From Alphaproteobacteria bacterium (lineage in GTDB: Bacteria; Pseudomonadota; Alphaproteobacteria; SP197), in NCBI GenBank assembly GCA_965242595.1, contig OZ251464.1, positions 2,568,021 to 2,632,020 on the forward strand: DNA of 64,000 nucleotides. The letters run 5' to 3'. The notes under the pieces were generated by a model, which did not search any database, was not told the DNA's origin, and saw only the letters and a list, made by a program, of their open reading frames with translations. Below are positions 19,664 to 58,863 of the stretch, in pieces. Each line of letters starts with the position of its first letter. The first letter of the stretch is position 1. Position numbers and translations under genes: made by a program.

Positions 19664-21703
19664 ATGACCCGCGATCCACGCTACGACATCCTGTTCGAAC
19701 CGGTCGCCATCGGGCCGGTGACGGCGCCCAATCGCTTCTACCAGGTGCCGCATTGCTCCGGCATGGGCTTCGCCATGCCGCGCACGCTGAACGCCATGCG
19801 CGAGGTCAAGGCCGAGGGCGGCTGGGGCGTGGTGTGCACCGAATACTGCTCCACCGACCCTTCCTCCGACGACCACCCCTATCCCTATTGCACCTTGTGG
19901 GACGAGGGCGATGTCAGGAACCAGGCGGCCATGGTGGAGGCGGTGCATCGCCACGGGGCGCTGGCCGGCGTCGAGCTGTGGCACGGCGGCTATGCCGCGG
20001 AAAACTGGCTTTCGCGCGCCGTCTCCATGGCACCCATGTCCATGCCGGTCTGGCATGGCAGCGGCCAGACCCGGGCCATGGACAAGGCCGATATCCGCGA
20101 ATTCCGCCGCAACCATCGCGCCTCGGCGCTGCGGGCGAAGCAGGCCGGCTTCGACATCGTCTATGTCTATGCTGCCCATGGCTATCTGCCGGCGCAGTTC
20201 CTCTCGCCGGTGCAGAACCGGCGCACGGACGAATATGGCGGCAGCTTCGAGAACCGCGCCCGCCTGATCAAGGAGTTGCTGGAGGAGACCGGCGAGGCGG
20301 TGGGGGCCGAATGCGGCGTCGCCATCCGCTTTGCCGTCGACAACCTGGATACCGACATGGGCATCGACAGCGACGGCGACGGGCGGGCGCTGGTGGAATA
20401 TCTGGCCGAACTTCCGGATTTGTGGGACGTCAACATCGCCAACTTCCCGGCCGATGCCCGCACCGCCCGTTTCGCCGAAGAGGGCGCCCAGGAGGCCCAT
20501 ATCGCCTTCGTCAAACAGGTGACGTCGAAGCCGGTGGTGATCGTGGGCCGCTATACCGGCCCCGACCGCATGGCCAGCATCGTCGCCGCCGGCCTGACCG
20601 ATCTGATCGGCGCCGCCCGCCCGTCCATCGCCGATCCCTTCCTGCCGAAGAAGATCGAGCAGGGCCGCAGCGAAGACATCCGCGAATGCATCGGCTGCAA
20701 TGTCTGCATCATGGGCGACGGCAACGGCGTTCCCATCCGCTGCACCCAGAACCCGACCATGGGCGAGGAATGGCGCCGCGGCTGGCATCCGGAGCGGATC
20801 GCCCCCAAAGGCGGCGACGGCAAGGTGCTGATCGTCGGCGCCGGCCCGGCCGGGCTGGAGGCGGCGCGGGCCGCCGGCCAGCGGGGCTATCGCGTCACCC
20901 TGGCGGAGGCCCGCCCCGAGGTGGGCGGCCGGGCGGCCCGCGAGGCGCGTCTGCCGGGGCTTGCCACCTTCGCGCGGGTGAGAGACTGGCGAACGGGCCA
21001 GATCGCCGCCATGCCGGGGGTGGAGCTGTTTCGGGAAAGCCGGCTGCAGGCGGCCCAGGTGCTGGAGTTCGGCTTCGACCATGTCTGCATCGCCACCGGC
21101 GCCACCTGGCGCCCCGATGGCACCGGGCGATCCAGCTTCCGCCCCTTCGAAGGCTGGCGCCACCGGCGCGTGGGCACGCCCGACGACGTCATGGCCGGGC
21201 GCGCCTTCGAAGGCCGCGTGCTGGTCTATGACGACGACCATTTCTACATGGGCGGCGTCGTTGCCGAGGCGCTGGCCGGGGCCGGCAACCGGGTGGTGTT
21301 CGTCACCAGCGCCGACAGCGTTTCGCCGGATTGCGAGCGCACCCTGGACCAGGCGCGCATCCAGGCGCGGCTGATCCAGCTGGGCATCGAGATCGTCACC
21401 GCCCACACGCTGCAGGCCTTCGACGGCAGCCACGCCCTGCTGGCCTGCGGCTATGGCGGCGGCGAGCGCAAGGTGGCCTGCGACAGCCTGGTGGCGGTGA
21501 CCTCACGCGAACCCTGCGACGCGCTCTACCGCGAGCTCGCCGCCCGTCCCGAACGGCTGGCGGCGGCCGGCATCGCCAGCCTGAAGCGCATCGGCGATTG
21601 CGAGGCGCCCGACATCGTCGCCGCCGCCGTCCATGCCGGCCACCTCTACGCCCGCACCCTGGACGCCAAAGACGAGGTCAGGCGCGACCGCGTCGTGCTG
21701 TAG
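19664..21703 (+). CDS. FMN/[4Fe-4S]/ADP-binding flavoprotein of the trimethylamine-dehydrogenase / N-methylproline-demethylase / 2,4-dienoyl-CoA-reductase family
   Basis: MTRDPRYDILFEPVAIGPVTAPNRFYQVPHC.. is an OYE-like TIM barrel. ..ECIGCNVCI.. is the Cys cluster. ..VLIVGAGPAGLEAARAAGQRGYRVTLAE.. is a dinucleotide fold. The ATG at 19664 was checked by hand. Confidence 0.85.
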   Translation: MTRDPRYDILFEPVAIGPVTAPNRFYQVPHCSGMGFAMPRTLNAMREVKAEGGWGVVCTEYCSTDPSSDDHPYPYCTLWDEGDVRNQAAMVEAVHRHGALAGVELWHGGYAAENWLSRAVSMAPMSMPVWHGSGQTRAMDKADIREFRRNHRASALRAKQAGFDIVYVYAAHGYLPAQFLSPVQNRRTDEYGGSFENRARLIKELLEETGEAVGAECGVAIRFAVDNLDTDMGIDSDGDGRALVEYLAELPDLWDVNIANFPADARTARFAEEGAQEAHIAFVKQVTSKPVVIVGRYTGPDRMASIVAAGLTDLIGAARPSIADPFLPKKIEQGRSEDIRECIGCNVCIMGDGNGVPIRCTQNPTMGEEWRRGWHPERIAPKGGDGKVLIVGAGPAGLEAARAAGQRGYRVTLAEARPEVGGRAAREARLPGLATFARVRDWRTGQIAAMPGVELFRESRLQAAQVLEFGFDHVCIATGATWRPDGTGRSSFRPFEGWRHRRVGTPDDVMAGRAFEGRVLVYDDDHFYMGGVVAEALAGAGNRVVFVTSADSVSPDCERTLDQARIQARLIQLGIEIVTAHTLQAFDGSHALLACGYGGGERKVACDSLVAVTSREPCDALYRELAARPERLAAAGIASLKRIGDCEAPDIVAAAVHAGHLYARTLDAKDEVRRDRVVL

Positions 21704-21769
21704 GCCGGGGCTAGCGAGCTGCCACAGGCCATGCTATGACGATGCTCGCTCGCAGAAGGTAGCGCCGCC

Positions 21770-22945
21770 ATGCCCGAAGAGCCGAACGGCCGCTTGCACC
21801 TCCCAAGCCTCTCCATCAAGGGCTTTCGGGGCATCGACGAGCTCGACATCCCACATTTAGGCCGTGTGACCTTGCTAACCGGTAGAAACGGCGTTGGCAA
21901 AACGACGGTTCTGGAAGCTGTTCGGATCTATGCTTCGCGAGGTAGTGAGCATGTGCTATCCAGTCTTCTGTGGGAGCATGAAGAGTACGCAGTTGCTGTT
22001 GACGAAGATGAAGACAGGACGTTTGCCCCGGATCTTGCGACCTTGTTTCATGGTCGCAAAGTATCACTGGATTCTCGTATCGAGATCGGACAATCAGGCA
22101 AAAGGAATCTCATAATTAAGGCAACTACCCCGAGTCATCCTCAAGCAGATCTCTTGGAGAAAGAAGGACTGTATTATGACGCGCAATCGGATACCTCCTT
22201 GTTGGCAATAGCGGTTACACTTTCTGATCGTGAACGAATATTACCTTTGTTTTTTTCACGATACTATCCTTCCATGATGAAAAGGCGCAGACTCTCTCGA
22301 CGATTTGTTGAAGAGCATGGGGAATGGCCGCCAGCATTGAAGTGTCAACCTCTTGGTCCTGGTTTGCTTGACAACAACGCTGTGGCAGGATTTTGGGACG
22401 CCGTGGCACTGACAGAAGATGGAGATCGCGCGGTCGAGGCTTTGAATCTCGTGCTTCATGACAACAAAGCGGCTCAAGTAGCTATGATCGGTGACGATCC
22501 ACGACGCTACCCCCCACGCTATCTCCCATATGCTCGGGCGCTTTACGAGCGGAGGGCTGTCGTAAAACTGCAAGGCCACGACGGACCTGTGCCATTGAAA
22601 AGTCTCGGTGATGGGGCGATACGGCTTTTCGGAGTCGCTCTCGCTCTGGCCGGTAGCCGCGGCGGGTTTCTGGTTATCGATGAGGCCGAGAATGGCATCC
22701 ACTACTCCGCTCACACCGACCTCTGGCGTATGATTTTGCAGACGGCGCGCAAGAATGATGTGCAAGTCTTCGCGACAACTCACAGCTTTGATTGTGTGAA
22801 TGGGTTTGCAAAAGCAGCTTTGGAGGATCCAATGAGTGAAGGCAGGCTTGTGCGATTGGAAAAGAAAGGCGGGCAGATTCGCGCTGTCGCCTATTCGGAG
22901 GACGAGCTCAAAATCGCCTCTGAACAAGGCATAGAGGTTCGCTAG
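21770..22945 (+). CDS. ABC/RecF-like AAA ATPase (AAA_15/AAA_21 type), AriA/AbiL-ATPase-like
   Basis: LSIKGFRGIDELDIPHLGRVTLLTGRNGVGKTTVLEAVRIY (Walker A); ..LKSLGDGAIRLFGVALALAGSRGGFLVIDEAENGIHYS.. (signature-like motif plus Walker B/D-loop); ..VFATTHSFD (H-loop). AT-rich codon usage contrasts with the flanks. Confidence 0.85.
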   Translation: MPEEPNGRLHLPSLSIKGFRGIDELDIPHLGRVTLLTGRNGVGKTTVLEAVRIYASRGSEHVLSSLLWEHEEYAVAVDEDEDRTFAPDLATLFHGRKVSLDSRIEIGQSGKRNLIIKATTPSHPQADLLEKEGLYYDAQSDTSLLAIAVTLSDRERILPLFFSRYYPSMMKRRRLSRRFVEEHGEWPPALKCQPLGPGLLDNNAVAGFWDAVALTEDGDRAVEALNLVLHDNKAAQVAMIGDDPRRYPPRYLPYARALYERRAVVKLQGHDGPVPLKSLGDGAIRLFGVALALAGSRGGFLVIDEAENGIHYSAHTDLWRMILQTARKNDVQVFATTHSFDCVNGFAKAALEDPMSEGRLVRLEKKGGQIRAVAYSEDELKIASEQGIEVR

Positions 22946-22947
22946 GT

Positions 22948-23634
22948 GTGCTTCCGATGGGTGTTCCTGCGAAGAGGCTTTTGATTGTCGAAGGACCGGA
23001 TGACAAACACGTCATTCGCCATCTCCTTAAGAAGCTAGGCTATGAGACTAAAATTGTTAAAGAGAATGGCCGCGTTCACTTTGTTTGTCGGCACTCGGAT
23101 CGTATGGCATACTTCCGCATCGTCGACAAAGGAGGTATCAATCAACTTCTCGACGCTATCGCCCAAGAAGCCAAGGTGTCAGGGCGGCTTGCTCTTGGTA
23201 TCGTTGCTGACGCAAATGAAACCCCATGTTCTCGTTGGAAGGCCATTTCGGACCGGATTCGGAAAATAGAAGTTGAACCGCTTTCATTGCCTGACGAGCG
23301 TGAGCCAGAAGGCACAGTTATCGGGAATATGCTGCGCGTTGGTGTTTGGTTGATGCCGGATAATCGGCGGTGTGGAGAAATTGAAGACTTTGTGCAGGAA
23401 ATGATCCCGGATGATGATCCTGTTTGGCCTTTATCCAAGCAATACATCGGTGATATTCCTTCTCATGACAGGAAGTTTACTCGCAAAAAGAGGACTCGGG
23501 CCGAGCTTTATGCTTGGATGGCAACAAGAAAAGAACCTAGCCGTATGGGAACGGCCATCGGTAGCGGCGATCTGAAGACTGACGGTGAGCTTTGCGCATC
23601 GTTCTCGCGGTGGATCCAGCGTCTGTTCACATAA
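22948..23634 (+). CDS. small Toprim-like protein (DUF4435/DUF3226/DUF4276-type partner of AAA_21 ATPases)
   Basis: The N-terminal strand KRLLIVEGPDDKHVIRHLL matches the xVEGxxD glutamate motif of OLD-type Toprim domains. A second acidic strand, LALGIVADANE, follows. The gene starts 2 nt after the ATPase stop (GTG 22948, or ATG 22957). The family assignment is from memory of consensus sequences and has not been searched. Confidence 0.6.
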   Translation: MLPMGVPAKRLLIVEGPDDKHVIRHLLKKLGYETKIVKENGRVHFVCRHSDRMAYFRIVDKGGINQLLDAIAQEAKVSGRLALGIVADANETPCSRWKAISDRIRKIEVEPLSLPDEREPEGTVIGNMLRVGVWLMPDNRRCGEIEDFVQEMIPDDDPVWPLSKQYIGDIPSHDRKFTRKKRTRAELYAWMATRKEPSRMGTAIGSGDLKTDGELCASFSRWIQRLFT

Positions 23635-23645
23635 CACCTGCGCAC

Positions 23646-24965
23646 TCAGCCTCTCATAGACCAGCGGTCGAGGAGCTTCATCCAGCCCACCACCAGCGGC
23701 AGGAACCAGGGGTCGCCGCGGTAGAAGGGCACGGTCGGGAAGGGCCGGTCGTCCAGCGGTGTGGCCGCATCGGCGTCGCCCAGAATGCGCAGCGCCGTCT
23801 TGTGGCCCAGCCAGGTTCCCATCGGCACGCCGGCGGCGCACCAGCCCATGGCGTAATGCAGGCCGTCATGGCGGCCGCCATGGGGCAGCATGTCGAAGCT
23901 GAAGGCGACCTTGCCGGTCCAGCAATGGCTCAGCCTGGCGCCCGCCAGCGCCGGCACCAGGCGCACCATGGCGGCGTGGAGGCGGCCGGCCTTGGCATCC
24001 AGCGCCTGCGGCCCCTCGCCGGTAAGGCCGCCGAACAGCACCCGGGTGCCGTCTTCGCTGGGCCGCATCCAGCAGGGCGTGTTGCGGTTTTCGATCATCG
24101 GCCGCCCGCCGGGCATCGCCTCGGCCATCAGCGCCGCCGGCAGCGGCTCGGTGGCGATCATGAAGGCCGGCACGGGCACGACGCGCCGCCGCTGCCAGGG
24201 CAGCGCCCGGGGCGTGTAGCCATTGGTGGCCACCACCACCTCGCGGGCGGCGATGGCGCCCTTGGCCGTCGTCACCGTGAAGCCGGCCTTTTCGCGCACC
24301 ACGCCCGTCGCCGGGCAGAAGCCCACGATGTCGGCGCCCTGCGAGCGGGCGCGCCGCAGCAGCCCGTTGTGATAGAGGCCGGTATGCACCAGGCCGTTGC
24401 CGCGCAGCAGCTGGCCGCCGCGATACAGATCGCTGGCGATGTAGTCGCGCTGGCGCTCCGGCCCCACCATCTCGGCATCGACCGGCACGCCGTCCGCCAC
24501 CATCATCTCCAGGTCGCGTTCCAGCTTGTCGAAGGCCGCCCTGGAAGGGGCGGCGATGAAACGGCCGCTGTTGCGGTAGAAACAGGCGATCTGCTCGTCG
24601 CGGATCAGGCCGGCGGCATAATCGTGGGCGGCGATGGCGGCGCGGGCCAGCTCGGCCGCCCTGGCCCGCCCCACGGCCCTGGCCATATCGCCATATTTGA
24701 ACCACAGGCTGCGGCCCAGATAGCCGGCATTGCGCGTGCTGGCGCCGTGGCCCGCCGCCTCGGCATCCAGCACCACCACCCGGCGCCCGCCCCTGGCCAG
24801 GGTCAGCGCGCAGGAAAGGCCGACATTGCCCGCCCCGATCACCGCCACATCGGCTCGGCGGGGCGGCATGGCGCCATCGTCTTCAGGGCGCGGGGCCAGA
24901 TCCCACCAATAAGGGGTTTGCCTGAAGCCGGGGGCGAGAACGCCCGCCTCACGGGAAGCAGCCAT
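23646..24965 (-). CDS. FAD-dependent oxidoreductase (DAO family)
   Basis: ..ADVAVIGAGNVGLSCALTLARGGRRVVVLDAE.. is a GxGxxG Rossmann N-terminus. The gene is 439 aa. Confidence 0.8.
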   Translation of the reverse strand: MAASREAGVLAPGFRQTPYWWDLAPRPEDDGAMPPRRADVAVIGAGNVGLSCALTLARGGRRVVVLDAEAAGHGASTRNAGYLGRSLWFKYGDMARAVGRARAAELARAAIAAHDYAAGLIRDEQIACFYRNSGRFIAAPSRAAFDKLERDLEMMVADGVPVDAEMVGPERQRDYIASDLYRGGQLLRGNGLVHTGLYHNGLLRRARSQGADIVGFCPATGVVREKAGFTVTTAKGAIAAREVVVATNGYTPRALPWQRRRVVPVPAFMIATEPLPAALMAEAMPGGRPMIENRNTPCWMRPSEDGTRVLFGGLTGEGPQALDAKAGRLHAAMVRLVPALAGARLSHCWTGKVAFSFDMLPHGGRHDGLHYAMGWCAAGVPMGTWLGHKTALRILGDADAATPLDDRPFPTVPFYRGDPWFLPLVVGWMKLLDRWSMRG

Positions 24966-44942: not shown

Positions 44943-45062
44943 GGCTGCTCCTGGGCTAAGGGGGCCTTCTCATAGCCCGGCCGGGCCGGTGCCTGCAATG
45001 CGGGCACTTGCCGGGCGGGCGTCCTTCCACTATCTGTTGCGGGCGAAAGCGAGGGGAAGGCC

Positions 45063-46016
45063 ATGACCGCTGCATCCGACACCGCCCTGGGGCGCCTGGA
45101 AGCTGTCGATCTGCGCCAGGTGTGGCCGAGGGAAGACGACGGCTTCACGCCCTGGCTCGCCGACGAGGGCAACATCCAGTTGCTGGGCGATGCCATCGGG
45201 GTTGAGCTCGAAGTAGAGGGGATCGAGCAGGGCGTAGGGCCGTTCCGCGCCGACATCCTGTGCCGGGATAGGAACACCGGGCAGCAGGTGCTGATCGAAA
45301 ACCAGTTGGAGCGCACCGACCACACCCATCTCGGGCAGTTGCTGACCTATGCCGCTGGCCGCGATGCCGTCACCGTGGTCTGGATCGCCCGGCGCTTCAC
45401 CGATGAGCATCGTGCGGCGCTGGACTGGTTGAACGAAATCACCGGCAACAAGATCGGCTTCTTCGGCATCGAGATCGAGCTTTGGAGAATCGGCGCCTCG
45501 GCCCCCGCCCCGAAGTTCAACATCGTTTCGCAACCCAACAACTGGACGAAGTCTTCGGGAGGACCGTCTGGGCGCCCCCCGACAGATAGGGAGAAATTTC
45601 TGATTGAATACTGGCATGCGCTCTGGGAGGCGTCCGGTGAAATCCTGGAACGGTGTGGTTATCAACAACCGTCATCCCATTATTTCACAGGCCGCGAAGT
45701 CGGTCGCGTCGGATTCCGGTTATATCTGTTGGCCTCCACTTCGGACAAGTCGATATCCGTTCAATTGGAGATCGACACACAGGACACCAAAGCCGATTAC
45801 GCCGCCCTCCATAACGATAAGGAGGCAATCGAGCACGCGATCGGCGATACGCTCTTGTGGGAAGAACGGCCGGACAAGAAGAGAAGCCGCATCACCCTCC
45901 TGCGACGGGATTGCGACCCAAAAGACCGGGGACTCTGGCAGAAACAGCACGCATGGCTCGTCGACAAACAGGAACTCCTCCACAGCGTCTTCGTGAAACA
46001 AATCGAAGGGCCCTGA
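45063..46016 (+). CDS. DUF4268-type protein with N-terminal PD-(D/E)xK-like nuclease fold
   Basis: ..GPFRADILCRDRNTGQQVLIENQLERTDHTHLGQLLTYAAG.. shows a D...E-x-Q core plus the HLGQ.LTY motif I associate with DUF4268 proteins. Its GC is intermediate, lower than the flanks. Confidence 0.55.
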   Translation: MTAASDTALGRLEAVDLRQVWPREDDGFTPWLADEGNIQLLGDAIGVELEVEGIEQGVGPFRADILCRDRNTGQQVLIENQLERTDHTHLGQLLTYAAGRDAVTVVWIARRFTDEHRAALDWLNEITGNKIGFFGIEIELWRIGASAPAPKFNIVSQPNNWTKSSGGPSGRPPTDREKFLIEYWHALWEASGEILERCGYQQPSSHYFTGREVGRVGFRLYLLASTSDKSISVQLEIDTQDTKADYAALHNDKEAIEHAIGDTLLWEERPDKKRSRITLLRRDCDPKDRGLWQKQHAWLVDKQELLHSVFVKQIEGP

Positions 46017-55659: not shown

Positions 55660-57363
55660 TCAACCCTTATAGTGCGTCGGCAGTCTTCTGGGGCCTTCGT
55701 CAGTTGGTTTACCAAATTCTCCATATTGACTAAGCTGTTCGGGTAGTTCCTCCGCTGCACCGCCTATCGCGACAGCAAGCTGAGGGTACTCTGTCTTTAA
55801 ATCCGGATATCGTTCGGTAAGCCACGAGGGCACGTCCGGTGCGAGTATACAGCGCAAACGACGACCATGAACCCTAACAGATTTATTTCCCAGCTCACGA
55901 ACCATTGGCAATCTCGAGCTCCCACCAGTGAGTATGATAGTAAGCCCTTGGTCAGACAGTCCTTCAACCCAAGAATGGTGCGCACTTTCCAGCGACTCCT
56001 GGAACGTTTTCTTGAGGTTACTCGCGAACTTGACAACTCGCTCGTCTCCCAGGAAATCGTCTTTCCTGATCGATCCGACGTCATCGTTGGAAAGGCTGTA
56101 GCTAGCTGATCCTTCCCGAAACATGTTCTCTTTCAGGATTCGATCACGCAAGCGGAGATCGGAATTAACATGATCGTATTCAGCATCTCCAGGCCTGATA
56201 TTTTCCTGTTCGAGAATACACCTTACCAGTATGTTGTCGATCATATCCCCGCCTTGCCGCAATACTTTAGCTGTATTAAGTATCTCAGCGATCCTTGGTT
56301 GGTCGTCTCCACTTCGAGGTGGCGCGACGATAAATAAACCATAATCTGTCGTCCCAGCACCAGCATCCACCACCATATACAAACGGCGCTCCTTGAATCC
56401 TCGCAGACTACTCGACGCGGCCGCGACTGCCTCATGTACACCTTGATCGATGAGGTATTCCGGGAGCTTTGTAAGCTCTCCAACTTCATCGAGTTTCTCT
56501 CGAACAAGGGCAACACCAAGTCCTCCAGTCCACTTTCCGCTGAATGAATCAGCAAGAATCTGCGCTCTCGCTAGCATCTCTTTTATTCGCAATTCTGCCC
56601 ATTGAGCACGTTCTTTCGACCAGAAAGGCATAGCAAAACGCCTTAATACATAACGGGATATGTTCTGGGACGCGAGCTCAGAGCATGCCAAGTCCGTTAA
56701 GAACGCAAGATATAGGGTGATCAATTCTTTCCTCATAAAATCAATCGATGGGTGCGGATTAATCTCTTTCCCAATTGGTCTGTCGATAAAGTCGAAAGAA
56801 TCGTCGAAATAGCCTTGACTTAGGTCTTGTTTCAAAGAATCATACCGCAACTGTCCGGGATTCTGTTCACTCAGGCTTTTACCAATTGCTTCATGACCAA
56901 AATAAATCTTGGCATCACGACCAATGTACAGGGTCGAAGATACCGGAAATTTCATGTGTGGTTCTTTGGCTCGTTGCCCTATAGGAAGAAGGAGAAGCCC
57001 ATCACCCCAATCTCTTGTCGCAGATGCCTTCGACATGGCCGTTCCAAAGTCGAGGCACAACTTCACGGATTCATCATCGGGTTTGTCACGCTCCAAACTG
57101 GCAAGATTCAAGCTTGCCCCTTTCGGTTTCACCACCACCTCTTCAGATCCTGCTATACTTCGCTCCGTCAGCGGCACGTGGTTCGTTGGCATGATCGAAG
57201 TGGCGCCGTCATCCATTGTAGCCAATGCGTACGCGATGGCCTCGAATTCCCGATCCGAAATCGCACCACCGATATAGCGTTTCCCGGTTTTCGGATTTCT
57301 CTCAATCCTGTCCACCAGATTCTCCAGCATCAACCTAGCAATCTTAGCGTCCATTGCATTCAC
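55660..57363 (-). CDS. Hsp70/actin-fold (ASKHA) ATPase, nucleotide-binding domain only, with about 100-aa N-terminal extension
   Basis: ..VKLCLDFGTAMSKAS.. (phosphate-1, compare DnaK IGIDLGTTNS); ..VHEAVAAASSS.. (compare NEPTAAALAY); ..LYMVVDAGAGTTDYGLFIV.. (phosphate-2, compare DLGGGTFD); ..LTIILTGGSSRLPMVREL.. (adenosine motif, compare VGGQTRMPMV). There is no recognisable beta-sandwich/lid substrate-binding domain. Codon usage is AT-rich. Confidence 0.8.
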   Translation of the reverse strand: MNAMDAKIARLMLENLVDRIERNPKTGKRYIGGAISDREFEAIAYALATMDDGATSIMPTNHVPLTERSIAGSEEVVVKPKGASLNLASLERDKPDDESVKLCLDFGTAMSKASATRDWGDGLLLLPIGQRAKEPHMKFPVSSTLYIGRDAKIYFGHEAIGKSLSEQNPGQLRYDSLKQDLSQGYFDDSFDFIDRPIGKEINPHPSIDFMRKELITLYLAFLTDLACSELASQNISRYVLRRFAMPFWSKERAQWAELRIKEMLARAQILADSFSGKWTGGLGVALVREKLDEVGELTKLPEYLIDQGVHEAVAAASSSLRGFKERRLYMVVDAGAGTTDYGLFIVAPPRSGDDQPRIAEILNTAKVLRQGGDMIDNILVRCILEQENIRPGDAEYDHVNSDLRLRDRILKENMFREGSASYSLSNDDVGSIRKDDFLGDERVVKFASNLKKTFQESLESAHHSWVEGLSDQGLTIILTGGSSRLPMVRELGNKSVRVHGRRLRCILAPDVPSWLTERYPDLKTEYPQLAVAIGGAAEELPEQLSQYGEFGKPTDEGPRRLPTHYKG

Positions 57364-57384
57364 TCCAGTTTGTTTTCGGCTCGC

Positions 57385-58863
57385 CTACTCGGGCTCAACT
57401 CTGGCCATTAAGACGACTTCAGTAGTATCGTCGCCTCGCACTCGCTCTACCAAGGGGCGAACGATTCTCACGCGCCGCGCACCTACTATAGAGCTATCGA
57501 CTCTCTCATGCTCGATTGGCGAGTAATCCACCACTTCACCCCTTTCCCCCCGCAAATATAGAGACCGTTTGCTGGCAAGAGCAAGTACTTCTTCTGCCAT
57601 GAATTTCGCTCTTTTTAGAAGCATCTCGATACTCGCCTTGCGATCAGGTTCGAAGATATGCATTTCGTCCAGAAAATCACGCCCTGGCCCATCGATCATC
57701 TGGACAAGCCGGCGGCTATCGATTAACAGCAAGGCAAGTGCTTGATCGGAATCCATCCGTGCACTCTCGGCAATGAGTTCTGCTCCATGCACTCTTCCCG
57801 TCACCCGTCCTCGCCGAAGCCACTGGACAACATTCTTGCTAAGACCTGTGGTTTGATCCGCGATCCTGGATGTGGTTTTCAAAGCCTCTTCGCGCGATCC
57901 CTTCATTAGAGCAAGAGACTCCAGCAGTTTATCCTCTGGAATGCCCTGTTTGGCCAGAAGGATAATGGCTTCTTCAATGTCAAACGCTAAAATTGTGAGT
58001 GACTTGCGGGCATTCTTTGGCCATATCCTCCCCACAAACCATCGGGAGGGAACACGCATCGCCATGTACACTTCCTCCTCTGTCACCAGCGAAAGTCGTG
58101 TTCTTACGAGATCGTGTAGAAACAACGCAAACTCCACTACAACATCGGTGGCCTTGTCTAGCGACTTTGGTTGACCAACATTCCGAAAGGTGTCGGCAAA
58201 AAGTCCCTCTACAACTTTTCCTATGTCATTACCCACTGGCTTCTCTATATGCGGAAGTTCTTGGCGAATAGCTGCGAGAATGCGTTTCAATCTCTTTGCC
58301 GTACTGTCGCTTGGCACGTCCGTCCCCGGATGCCATTCGGTAAGCGGTTTACGAAGAGCACCGAACGCGCTCGCAAGGTCGGGAGCTTTCTCCAGTAAGG
58401 TCTGAACAAGCTCACTTCTTGCCTTTTCCCCTGCTCCCTCTTCCACAATTGATTTCCCGAGATACGGGACCACCCACTCGCCTTCTGCCCATCGTAGTGT
58501 TTGGGTGGCATATGCTCGGTCTTCTGCATCACTAAGTTCAGAAAGCTTGGGTAGCGGTGTTCGCAGCGCCGCAGCTATGGATTGCATTAAACCATCGCGC
58601 TTGGTTTTGAGCCGGCTCGCTATGCGCGCAACTACGGTGAGGGCGAGCAACTTTTGCCTTGGATCGCCACTTGACTGAACTTCTTTAATTGCATCTTCAA
58701 CACCCTGAATGAACCTCGGGTCATCATGCACGAAGTGAATTGTTCCCCTCTTCATCAATTCCTTCAAACTATGTATCTTTCGCTCCATTTTGCTATCATT
58801 GGCAAACGTGTGCAATGCAGCTTCGACGGAAGGCCGATTATCGATTGACTTCCTCTCATTCAT
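57385..58863 (-). CDS. hypothetical 492-aa protein, mostly helical, first gene of the operon with the Hsp70-like ATPase
   Basis: It is a clean AT-rich ORF that ends 21 nt upstream of the ATPase start, and I recognise no catalytic motif. The C-terminal segment ..GEVVDYSPIEHERVDSSIVGARRVRIVRPLVERVRGDDTTEVVLMARVEPE loosely recalls the GrpE beta-domain pattern (FDP..H.A ... V..V..GY ... RpA.V.V). This is a weak, unverified resemblance. Confidence 0.7.
   Translation of the reverse strand: MNERKSIDNRPSVEAALHTFANDSKMERKIHSLKELMKRGTIHFVHDDPRFIQGVEDAIKEVQSSGDPRQKLLALTVVARIASRLKTKRDGLMQSIAAALRTPLPKLSELSDAEDRAYATQTLRWAEGEWVVPYLGKSIVEEGAGEKARSELVQTLLEKAPDLASAFGALRKPLTEWHPGTDVPSDSTAKRLKRILAAIRQELPHIEKPVGNDIGKVVEGLFADTFRNVGQPKSLDKATDVVVEFALFLHDLVRTRLSLVTEEEVYMAMRVPSRWFVGRIWPKNARKSLTILAFDIEEAIILLAKQGIPEDKLLESLALMKGSREEALKTTSRIADQTTGLSKNVVQWLRRGRVTGRVHGAELIAESARMDSDQALALLLIDSRRLVQMIDGPGRDFLDEMHIFEPDRKASIEMLLKRAKFMAEEVLALASKRSLYLRGERGEVVDYSPIEHERVDSSIVGARRVRIVRPLVERVRGDDTTEVVLMARVEPE

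Follow-up and report, generated by a model that had tools for sequence, protein, structure and literature searches.

Pairs of an ATP-binding cassette (ABC) ATPase and a Toprim protein are a recurring design in bacterial immunity. In PARIS, a hexamer of AriA sequesters AriB, and the phage protein Ocr triggers an ATP-dependent release after which an AriB dimer cleaves tRNA-Lys (PMC11464382). Whether AbiL and other ATPase-Toprim pairs work like PARIS is stated in the literature to be open, and the mechanism of AbiL itself is unresolved. Here we describe an AT-rich islet of two genes (positions 21770 to 23634) within a 64,000-nucleotide (nt) stretch of alphaproteobacterial contig OZ251464.1, which we call the window. 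Gene 1 encodes an ABC ATPase and gene 2 a protein of the Pfam family DUF3226, and by their profile matches gene 2 belongs to that family and the islet to the PADLOC candidate system PDC-M38. We consider it reasonably probable that the islet is a self-contained, horizontally acquired module of PDC-M38 type, a sensor-effector pair resembling PARIS and AbiL and a candidate for defence. A first-pass annotation, made from the DNA letters, had described an ABC ATPase with a Toprim-like partner akin to PARIS or AbiL, possibly of a divergent or distinct subfamily rather than true AriB; the PDC-M38 and DUF3226 matches, and the lack of any AriB match, agree with that description. The two genes are as follows.

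Gene 1: 21770..22945, plus strand; ATG start, 391 amino acids (open reading frame list, profile matches).
Gene 2: 22948..23634, plus strand; 228 amino acids from a GTG start (open reading frame list, profile matches).

Profile matches and gene pairing

Gene 1 matches an A model and gene 2 a B model of PDC-M38, each over its full length, and the A gene is followed directly by the B gene on one strand. Gene 1 aligned to PDC-M38A (PDLC04611) with an E-value of 9.6e-80 (residues 11-391 on model positions 2-383 of 383), and gene 2 aligned to PDC-M38B (PDLC04624) with an E-value of 4.9e-34 (residues 9-227 on model positions 13-218 of 220). The Pfam family of gene 2, for which the first-pass annotation had listed DUF4435, DUF3226, DUF4276 and RloB as options, is DUF3226 (PF11536; 1.9e-45, 155.7 bits against a cut-off of 27, model positions 2-208 of 208). 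Against the Pfam and PADLOC models for DUF4435/AriB, RloB/AbiLii and DUF4276, gene 2 gave nothing at E ≤ 1. With matches of 9.6e-80 and 1.9e-45 over full model lengths, both open reading frames (ORFs) are genuine rather than chance frames.

The gap between the genes depends on the start assigned to gene 2. From the GTG start it is 2 nt, as first proposed, and the protein has 228 residues; from the ATG at 22957 used in the public gene call, it is 11 nt and the protein has 225 residues.

The same arrangement recurs elsewhere. Among 80 metagenomic loci, 62 extended 600 nt or more upstream of the DUF3226 match, and a same-strand ATPase homolog lay directly upstream in 62 of the 62, the four cases outside the strict distance rule being unaligned ATPase C-termini or a 36-nt overlap. 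In nine loci from assemblies and one plasmid, a gene for an ATPase of 366-392 amino acids stands in front of the DUF3226 gene, in the same orientation and 2-11 nt away. Across eight loci, pairwise identities of the ATPase and of its partner are correlated (r = 0.84, Mantel p about 0.002), much of this correlation being owed to the closest pair of loci, L001 and L086. The ATPase and the DUF3226 protein are an obligate pair.

The ATPase

In Pfam, gene 1 matched AAA_21 (1.5e-18) and AAA_15 (2.2e-17). Four motifs of ABC ATPases were all read at the places where they had first been marked; the residues named here as invariant are so in 34 homologs.

Walker A, GRNGVGKT: 21881-21904, plus strand; residues 38-45, with G38, N40, G43, K44 and T45 invariant.
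ABC signature-like motif, SLGDGAIR: 22601-22624, plus strand; residues 278-285, with S278, L279, G280 and G282 invariant.
Walker B and D-loop, FLVIDEAENGIH: 22667-22702, plus strand; residues 300-311, with D304, E305, E307, N308, G309 and H311 invariant.
H-loop, TTHS: 22775-22786, plus strand; residues 336-339, with T337 and H338 invariant.

The AlphaFold2 model of the gene 1 protein had a predicted local distance difference test score (pLDDT) of 82.4, and Foldseek aligned it to the ABC heads of Septu PtuA, retron-associated ATPases, SMC, Rad50 and Thermus OLD (6p74), with E-values from 7e-13 to 8e-10. Judged by its motifs and this model, gene 1 encodes a complete ABC ATPase of the SMC/Rad50/OLD class in which the catalytic motifs are intact. 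Fold alone cannot tell defence ATPases from housekeeping ones, whereas family-level hidden Markov models can. Below PDC-M38A, PADLOC returned matches to AbiLi (7.1e-45), AriA (1.1e-22) and GajA (2.5e-17). NCBIfam returned only sub-threshold N-terminal matches, among them MAD3 (NF047739), with 35.4 bits against a cut-off of 420.

These searches bear on the explanation that the islet is a housekeeping DNA-repair pair, in the manner of RecF/RecR or of SbcC-type ATPases, acting on chromosomal DNA. RecF, an ABC ATPase of SMC-like type, and RecR, which contains a Toprim domain, are such a combination; RecR is named among Toprim proteins in the title of Aravind et al. (1998), cited as reference 80 in PMC12065111. 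Weak matches to RecF, RecN and Rad50 occur at the Walker A end of gene 1, and Foldseek rates the SMC and Rad50 heads as high as those of defence ATPases. However, the RecF model (TIGR00611) scored 34.7 bits, where the cut-off is 172, and aligned to residues 13-56 only, and gene 1 was rejected as RecF with a score so far under the equivalog cut-off; a grouping with RecF, part of a contrary outcome that the first-pass annotation had raised, was not found. The foreign composition and singleton distribution of the pair, its absence from 80 related loci and its variable, often defence-linked genomic positions, all described below, also stand against a repair role, which we regard as effectively refuted.

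The DUF3226 protein

DUF3226 is a large family, with 4,288 clusters at 50% identity that match at E ≤ 1e-3, and the islet is a clean, minimal and intact example of it. Conservation was taken from a 114-member alignment of 50%-identity representatives, and the main features of gene 2 are as follows.

LLIVEGPDDKH: 22978-23010, plus strand; residues 11-21, strand β1 and the start of helix α1, with E15 in 113 of 114 members and D19 in 106 of 114.
GIVADANE: 23197-23220, plus strand; residues 84-91, the end of strand β3 and equivalent of the DxD motif, with D88 in 113 of 114 members and position 90 occupied by D in 58 and by N in 55.
WLMPDNRRCGEIEDF: 23347-23391, plus strand; residues 134-148, strand β4 and a loop, with W134, P137 and E146 invariant in 114 members.
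C-terminal helix motif, CASFSRWIQRLF: 23593-23628, plus strand; residues 216-227, with W222 invariant and a resemblance to CPxFxxWLxRL of DUF4276.
Insertion of about 20 residues: 23044-23103, plus strand; residues 33-52, between helix α1 and strand β2, modelled as a β-hairpin with pLDDT of about 88-91.

Other conserved positions are G132 (invariant), N139 and G143 (113 members each), D157 (108), D147 (94) and D138 (92). The insertion at residues 33-52 is missing from most homologs and is common to three of them (P0026, P0028 and P0038). The model of the gene 2 protein (pLDDT 91.3, predicted template modelling score 0.88) has the order β1 (10-14), α1 (17-29), hairpin insert (33-49), β2 (54-60), α2 (64-75), β3 (82-88), α3 (93-105) and β4 (130-136), followed by a helical C-terminal part.

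Toprim domains have a glutamate at the junction of β1 and α1 and a DxD motif after β3 (PMC12065111). In AriB of PARIS, the metal site consists of E26, D30, D88, E90 and E122, and the substitution E26A abolishes defence (PMC11464382). The acidic series of DUF3226 (E15, D19, D88, D/N90 and E146) keeps the order of this five-residue site. The spacings from E to D (+4) and from D to D/N (+2) equal those of AriB, and the last acidic residue lies further downstream in DUF3226 than in AriB. In the model, E15 closes β1, D88 closes β3 and E146 follows β4, the arrangement reported for Toprim domains. The VEG strand and GIVADANE, both noted at first, are present in gene 2 at these elements.

Profile searches returned weak matches in the same direction. 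Neither the gene 2 sequence nor a 35-member profile gave anything relevant against sequences of the Protein Data Bank (PDB). With the deep profile, the best non-artefact match was AriB (8ux9 and 8v46; E about 0.12), over the N-terminal strand only; AriB KKRLLVEGRHD aligned to DUF3226 kklLlVEGkdD, placing E15 opposite the validated E26 of AriB and D19 opposite D30. The top match of that search, the engineered repeat protein 4rzp, was dismissed as a repeat artefact in which no single stretch was significant. The only recurrent secondary Pfam family was OLD-like_TOPRIM, matched by 33 of the 114 members (best 2.7e-4, all under the curated cut-off); the window protein itself matched it at 0.02, with 15.9 bits against a cut-off of 23.2. 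Other secondary Pfam matches among the 114 were to OLD-like_TOPRIM_1 (two members), DUF4276 (two) and DUF4435 (one, E 0.11), and weak secondary PADLOC matches were to HEC-01B (6 of 35 members; 0.0056 for the window protein) and GajA. Using hhalign, we found two collinear local matches between DUF3226 and DUF4276, a family described as Toprim (PMC12065111): the N-terminal VEG strand with its helix, and the C-terminal CxxFxxWLxRL helix, each with P of about 0.005.

From this motif correspondence and the weak profile matches, DUF3226 is judged likely to belong to the Toprim superfamily. The evidence against that assignment is as follows. When the gene 2 model was searched with Foldseek in the PDB and BFVD, no match reached E < 1e-3 and neither top 50 contained a Toprim structure. 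The structures retrieved were generic α/β folds (MTAN, nucleoside phosphorylases and Ras-like GTPases), with template modelling (TM) scores of at most 0.36 (at most 0.31 for the PDB). The hhalign probability for the comparison with DUF4276 was only about 7-9%, and global mode was uninformative. All matches of DUF3226 to Toprim families lie beneath curated thresholds, and in the window protein the second Asp of the DxD-equivalent motif is replaced by N. The proposed Toprim fold of gene 2 is supported by motif order and weak profile matches but not by structure retrieval.

These same results are what an alternative would draw on, namely that DUF3226 is not a Toprim nuclease and has another α/β fold, and works as an adaptor, as a regulator that binds nucleotides or as an enzyme of another kind, with any effector activity located elsewhere or in the ATPase. 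The generic folds at TM ≤ 0.36, the profile searches that never reach significance thresholds and the half of the family that lacks the second Asp of DxD fit this alternative. On the other hand, the recurrent weak matches are all to Toprim families and to nothing else, the five-residue acidic series and its placement at strand ends follow AriB, and the genomic partner is the same as that of the Toprim effectors AriB, AbiLii, Mad4/DUF4276 and RloB. We judge a non-Toprim fold to be decidedly unlikely.

The asparagine deserves separate mention, as D-A-N had been singled out as departing from a clean DxD. The departure exists in the window protein. At position 90, 58 of the 114 members have D and 55 have N, and therefore D-A-N is not degeneracy; by this alignment it is a family-wide polymorphism and no defect.

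The C-terminal helix C-x-x-F-x-x-W-L-x-R-L is common to DUF3226 and DUF4276 (hhalign P about 0.004-0.005). Because both families pair with AAA_21 ATPases, this helix may be a common ATPase-docking element.

Composition and origin

The islet lies between two convergent genes, as the first-pass annotation described, and its coordinates, GC content and GC content at third codon positions (GC3) agree with that description. On its 5' side, a plus-strand gene for a 753-amino-acid Oxidored_FMN/Pyr_redox flavoprotein ends at 21703; on its 3' side, a minus-strand gene for a DAO-family FAD oxidoreductase has its stop at 23646. The islet measures 1.9 kb and consists of the two genes, without accessory genes. 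The spacers that flank it are as follows.

5' spacer: 21704..21769, plus strand; 66 nt from the flavoprotein stop to the gene 1 start, GC-rich, and negative for sigma-70-like promoters and terminators on the plus strand.
3' spacer: 23635..23645, no strand; 11 nt from the gene 2 stop to the convergent DAO stop, too short for a terminator.

The islet has a GC content of 0.516, whereas the window averages 0.687 (z = -3.2). GC3 is 0.51 in gene 1 and 0.49 in gene 2 and ranges from 0.87 to 0.92 in five neighbouring genes. Both proteins are singletons in a collection of 15 billion proteins, each present on a single 2.82-Mb contig, their nearest homologs being about 63-66% identical for the ATPase and 54-59% identical for the partner. 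Among 80 loci related through the flanking flavoprotein, mostly from metagenome-assembled genomes of Alpha- and Gammaproteobacteria, the pair was found in none; these loci come from one scan of a genome collection, and the closest, at only 81% amino-acid identity, is too distant to serve as a true empty site. By composition and distribution, the islet is horizontally acquired, foreign DNA, because its GC3 is 0.50 against 0.89 in the neighbours, its proteins are singletons and the pair is absent from the 80 related loci. The other contrary outcome raised at first, a pair of native composition at the same locus in all close relatives, is not what the composition and these 80 loci show. In seven other loci, the GC content of the pair is also beneath that of its flanks.

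In four relatives (L008, L009, L010 and L015), the flavoprotein and DAO genes are still arranged as in the window, but 2.6-4.3 kb of unrelated genes of native GC content separate them, and this junction seems to vary between lineages. In L015, two ORFs in the gap resemble an EamA-like transporter and a pyridoxal-phosphate-dependent decarboxylase, as judged from sequence without a family-library scan. An exact-protein lookup of the DAO gene in the window returned nothing. At the ends of the islet, direct and inverted repeats, tRNA genes and integrase genes were all absent, and there was no Rfam match near it.

Along gene 1, GC3 is host-like (0.88) over the first ~25 codons (21770-21870), falls to 0.44 by codon 40 and shows a second bump of 0.72-0.76 at codons 291-325 (about 22640-22745). 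Gene 2 is even, at 0.40-0.56, except for 0.68 in the last sliding window. A codon-wise comparison with four homologs detected no recent mosaic, and third-position identity to the sampled homologs was not raised at the GC-rich 5' end of gene 1.

Only one other stretch of the window is as AT-rich, a second islet at 55.7-58.9 kb (55660-58863, minus strand), which holds two genes with GC contents of 0.47-0.52 and GC3 of 0.48-0.50. Its 492-amino-acid ORF (57385..58863) matched PADLOC PDC-M61A (4.6e-84), its 567-amino-acid ORF (55660..57363) matched PDC-M61B (5.6e-135), and neither had a Pfam match at E < 1e-3. By these matches the window holds two separate candidate-defence islets of equal foreign composition. 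GC content is also reduced at 1-1000 (0.55) and 45001-46000 (0.61), against about 0.70.

Genomic setting of homologs

Some homologous pairs lie in defence settings. In L089, the pair stands between genes for a DUF1156 methylase and a DUF499/HEPN_Swt1 protein. In L001, its neighbours are a type III methyltransferase gene, a DUF1828 gene and an AAA_21 + DUF4276 pair. Among 72 nearest-flank ORFs, six were HmaB/DUF1156, four HmaA, two DUF499/HEPN_Swt1, two type I specificity subunits, three mad3 and one a type III methylase. None of the homologs looked up had been given a name by any source.

Positions 1-12004 of L089 form a dense defence cluster with the order HTH/Peptidase_M78, MazE, AAA_15+DUF3696 (Menshen NsnB-like) ATPase, DUF1156 methylase, NTase/HEPN pair, DUF1828, the ATPase-DUF3226 pair and DUF499/HEPN_Swt1. 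L001 (1188-8539) and L086 (6868-8606) are from related genomes and carry the pair at the same site, by HMGL-like/PYC_OADA, biotin-lipoyl and TauD genes; L001 has in addition the DUF1828 gene, a gene for a 938-amino-acid type III-like methyltransferase and the AAA_21 + DUF4276 pair, all of which are missing from L086. The site has the look of a defence hotspot with variable content.

The family was found in none of 50,697 phage records and in no IMG/VR contigs, and 72,556 plasmid records gave two distant matches only. One distant pair, L090, is on the Plesiomonas shigelloides megaplasmid NZ_CP027853.1 (246302-248046), where the genes are annotated as 'AAA family ATPase' and 'DUF3226 domain-containing protein'; the partner is 28% identical to gene 2. 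This pair lies ~3.3 kb past P2-like tail genes (tape measure, tail protein X and gpD/VgrG-like), with two hypothetical genes between, which suggests cargo at a prophage end.

Proposed function

By analogy with PARIS, AbiL and systems of the OLD family, the ATPase would form an oligomer that binds the DUF3226 protein, keeps it inactive and serves as an infection sensor. A phage-derived trigger, sensed in an ATP-dependent manner, would then free or activate the DUF3226 protein, which as a putative Toprim-like, metal-dependent nuclease might cut host or phage nucleic acid (tRNA, other RNA or DNA) and thereby halt growth or phage replication. Gene 2 is probably translationally coupled to gene 1. 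We infer by this analogy alone the complex, the sensor and effector roles, the trigger, the nuclease activity with its target and the anti-phage activity. The scheme yields residue-level predictions for K44 and E305 of the ATPase and for E15, D19, D88, N90 and E146 of the partner. Were protection found to be true, a PADLOC candidate would become a validated system and DUF3226 would gain a function.

The first-pass annotation had called the islet a defence-type module. The PDC-M38 match and the defence settings of some homologous loci agree with this, but the assignment is at the level of a candidate, and several observations weigh against a defence role. The 145 PDC candidates are described as untested and were nominated for their embedding in BREX, DISARM or type I restriction-modification loci (Payne et al., bioRxiv 10.1101/2024.01.29.577857). 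HEC-01, which also combines an ATPase with a TOPRIM protein, gave no protection against any phage tried (Payne et al., bioRxiv 10.1101/2024.01.29.577857). DUF3226 and PDC-M38 are not mentioned in the main texts of searchable papers. Many homolog loci, like the window copy, lie among ordinary metabolic genes, outside defence islands. Finally, a scan of the two flanking spacers for promoters and terminators, limited for promoters to sigma-70 consensus sites, was negative.

The spacer result bears on whether the islet is inert or decaying cargo, a recent arrival that is unexpressed or non-functional in its host. Such cargo would fit a 66-nt spacer with no recognisable promoter, the lack of a terminator before the DAO gene 11 nt away and codon usage far from that of the host. 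Yet both frames are full length against the family models, the conserved motif residues are all intact, the promoter scan covered sigma-70 consensus sites only, and the flavoprotein gene upstream is co-directional with the pair, which makes read-through transcription from it possible. We consider inert cargo very improbable.

A different function is envisaged if the islet is a toxin-antitoxin-like addiction module or a module of inter-element conflict, in which the ATPase would neutralise a toxic DUF3226 protein and the pair would be selfish cargo, or would act against plasmids or other mobile elements rather than phages. The tight two-gene operon, the foreign composition and the patchy singleton distribution fit such a module, as do the many homologs that stand alone among metabolic genes; PARIS formally behaves as a type II toxin-antitoxin pair, and HEC-01 showed no anti-phage activity. 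Against this, near-absence from plasmids and absence from phage records and IMG/VR would be unusual for addiction, the pair recurs within Hma and restriction-modification loci, and toxin-antitoxin behaviour and phage defence are compatible with each other. We regard this explanation as unlikely and retain the candidate defence pair as the reading to be preferred.

Comparison with known systems

PDC-M38 appears in the supplement of Payne et al. (bioRxiv 10.1101/2024.01.29.577857), where two cassettes are marked 'Assign as candidate', and a 2026 survey has most PDCs still unvalidated. PDC-M38 spans heterogeneous pairs, with several A and B models (PDLC04607-11; at least PDLC04614, 04623 and 04624). 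Some of the homologs found here are embedded, as described for PDCs, mostly in Hma loci and beside restriction-modification genes, whereas the window copy is stand-alone.

The islet resembles PARIS in that one operon encodes an AAA_15/AAA_21 ABC ATPase and a small, separate protein with an N-terminal hhVEGxxD strand, and in that DUF3226 echoes the series E, D(+4), D, D/E(+2), E of AriB. It differs in its partner, which is DUF3226 and not DUF4435, and gene 2 was rejected as AriB, having no DUF4435 or PADLOC AriB match at E ≤ 1. The AriA models (1.1e-22 and 2.2e-17) reach only about residues 232-341 of gene 1, in its C-terminal third. At 391 amino acids (about 43 kDa), the ATPase is smaller than AriA (53-55 kDa), and no coiled-coil insertion of AriA type was identified in it. 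PARIS is often on phages or satellites, unlike the DUF3226 family, which was not found in the phage or IMG/VR collections.

AbiL of Lactococcus (AbiLi/AbiLii) shares the two-gene arrangement of an ATPase and a Toprim/OLD-like effector. The AbiLi model (PDLC02336) is the closest ATPase model of a named system (7.1e-45), matched in two stretches and well below the PDC-M38A score. Gene 2 was rejected as AbiLii, as neither PADLOC nor Pfam gave an AbiLii or RloB match at E ≤ 1.

The Mad3/Mad4 pair of MADS and the AAA_21 + DUF4276 pairs have the same architecture, and in L001 a DUF4276 pair lies directly beside the DUF3226 pair. DUF4276 resembles DUF3226 in the N-terminal VEG strand and the C-terminal CxxFxxWLxRL helix, but the two are separate families at the Pfam level. 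Membership in MADS was rejected on the MAD3 score (35.4 bits against 420) and the lack of a DUF4276 match in gene 2.

HEC-01 is likewise a two-gene system of an ABC ATPase and a small TOPRIM-like partner, with weak matches to HEC-01A (4e-14) and HEC-01B (0.0056); it is a distinct family and only a weak relative. OLD nucleases and GajA of Gabija have an ABC ATPase head of the same class, and weak matches to OLD-like_TOPRIM and GajA were found. Membership was rejected here because ATPase and Toprim are fused in those proteins, whereas the islet has two separate ORFs, and because the GajA models cover only parts of gene 1.

By these comparisons, the islet departs from each of PARIS, AbiL, MADS, OLD/Gabija and RecF in one or more of the features that define them. 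We offer a broader proposal tentatively, holding it to be possible rather than probable: ATPase-DUF3226 pairs might constitute an independent, functional class within ABC-ATPase/Toprim immunity, alongside OLD, Gabija, retron-linked systems, PARIS, AbiL and MADS, with a trigger and a nucleic-acid target of their own. Such pairs would spread as bare chromosomal islets or within Hma and restriction-modification loci rather than on phages or plasmids, and the family-wide division into DxD and DxN would distinguish two forms of the Toprim site that vary in catalysis or regulation. Set beside the known systems, the islet is a new, divergent member of a computationally catalogued kind, one that fills in an already predicted branch and leaves the current picture unchanged.

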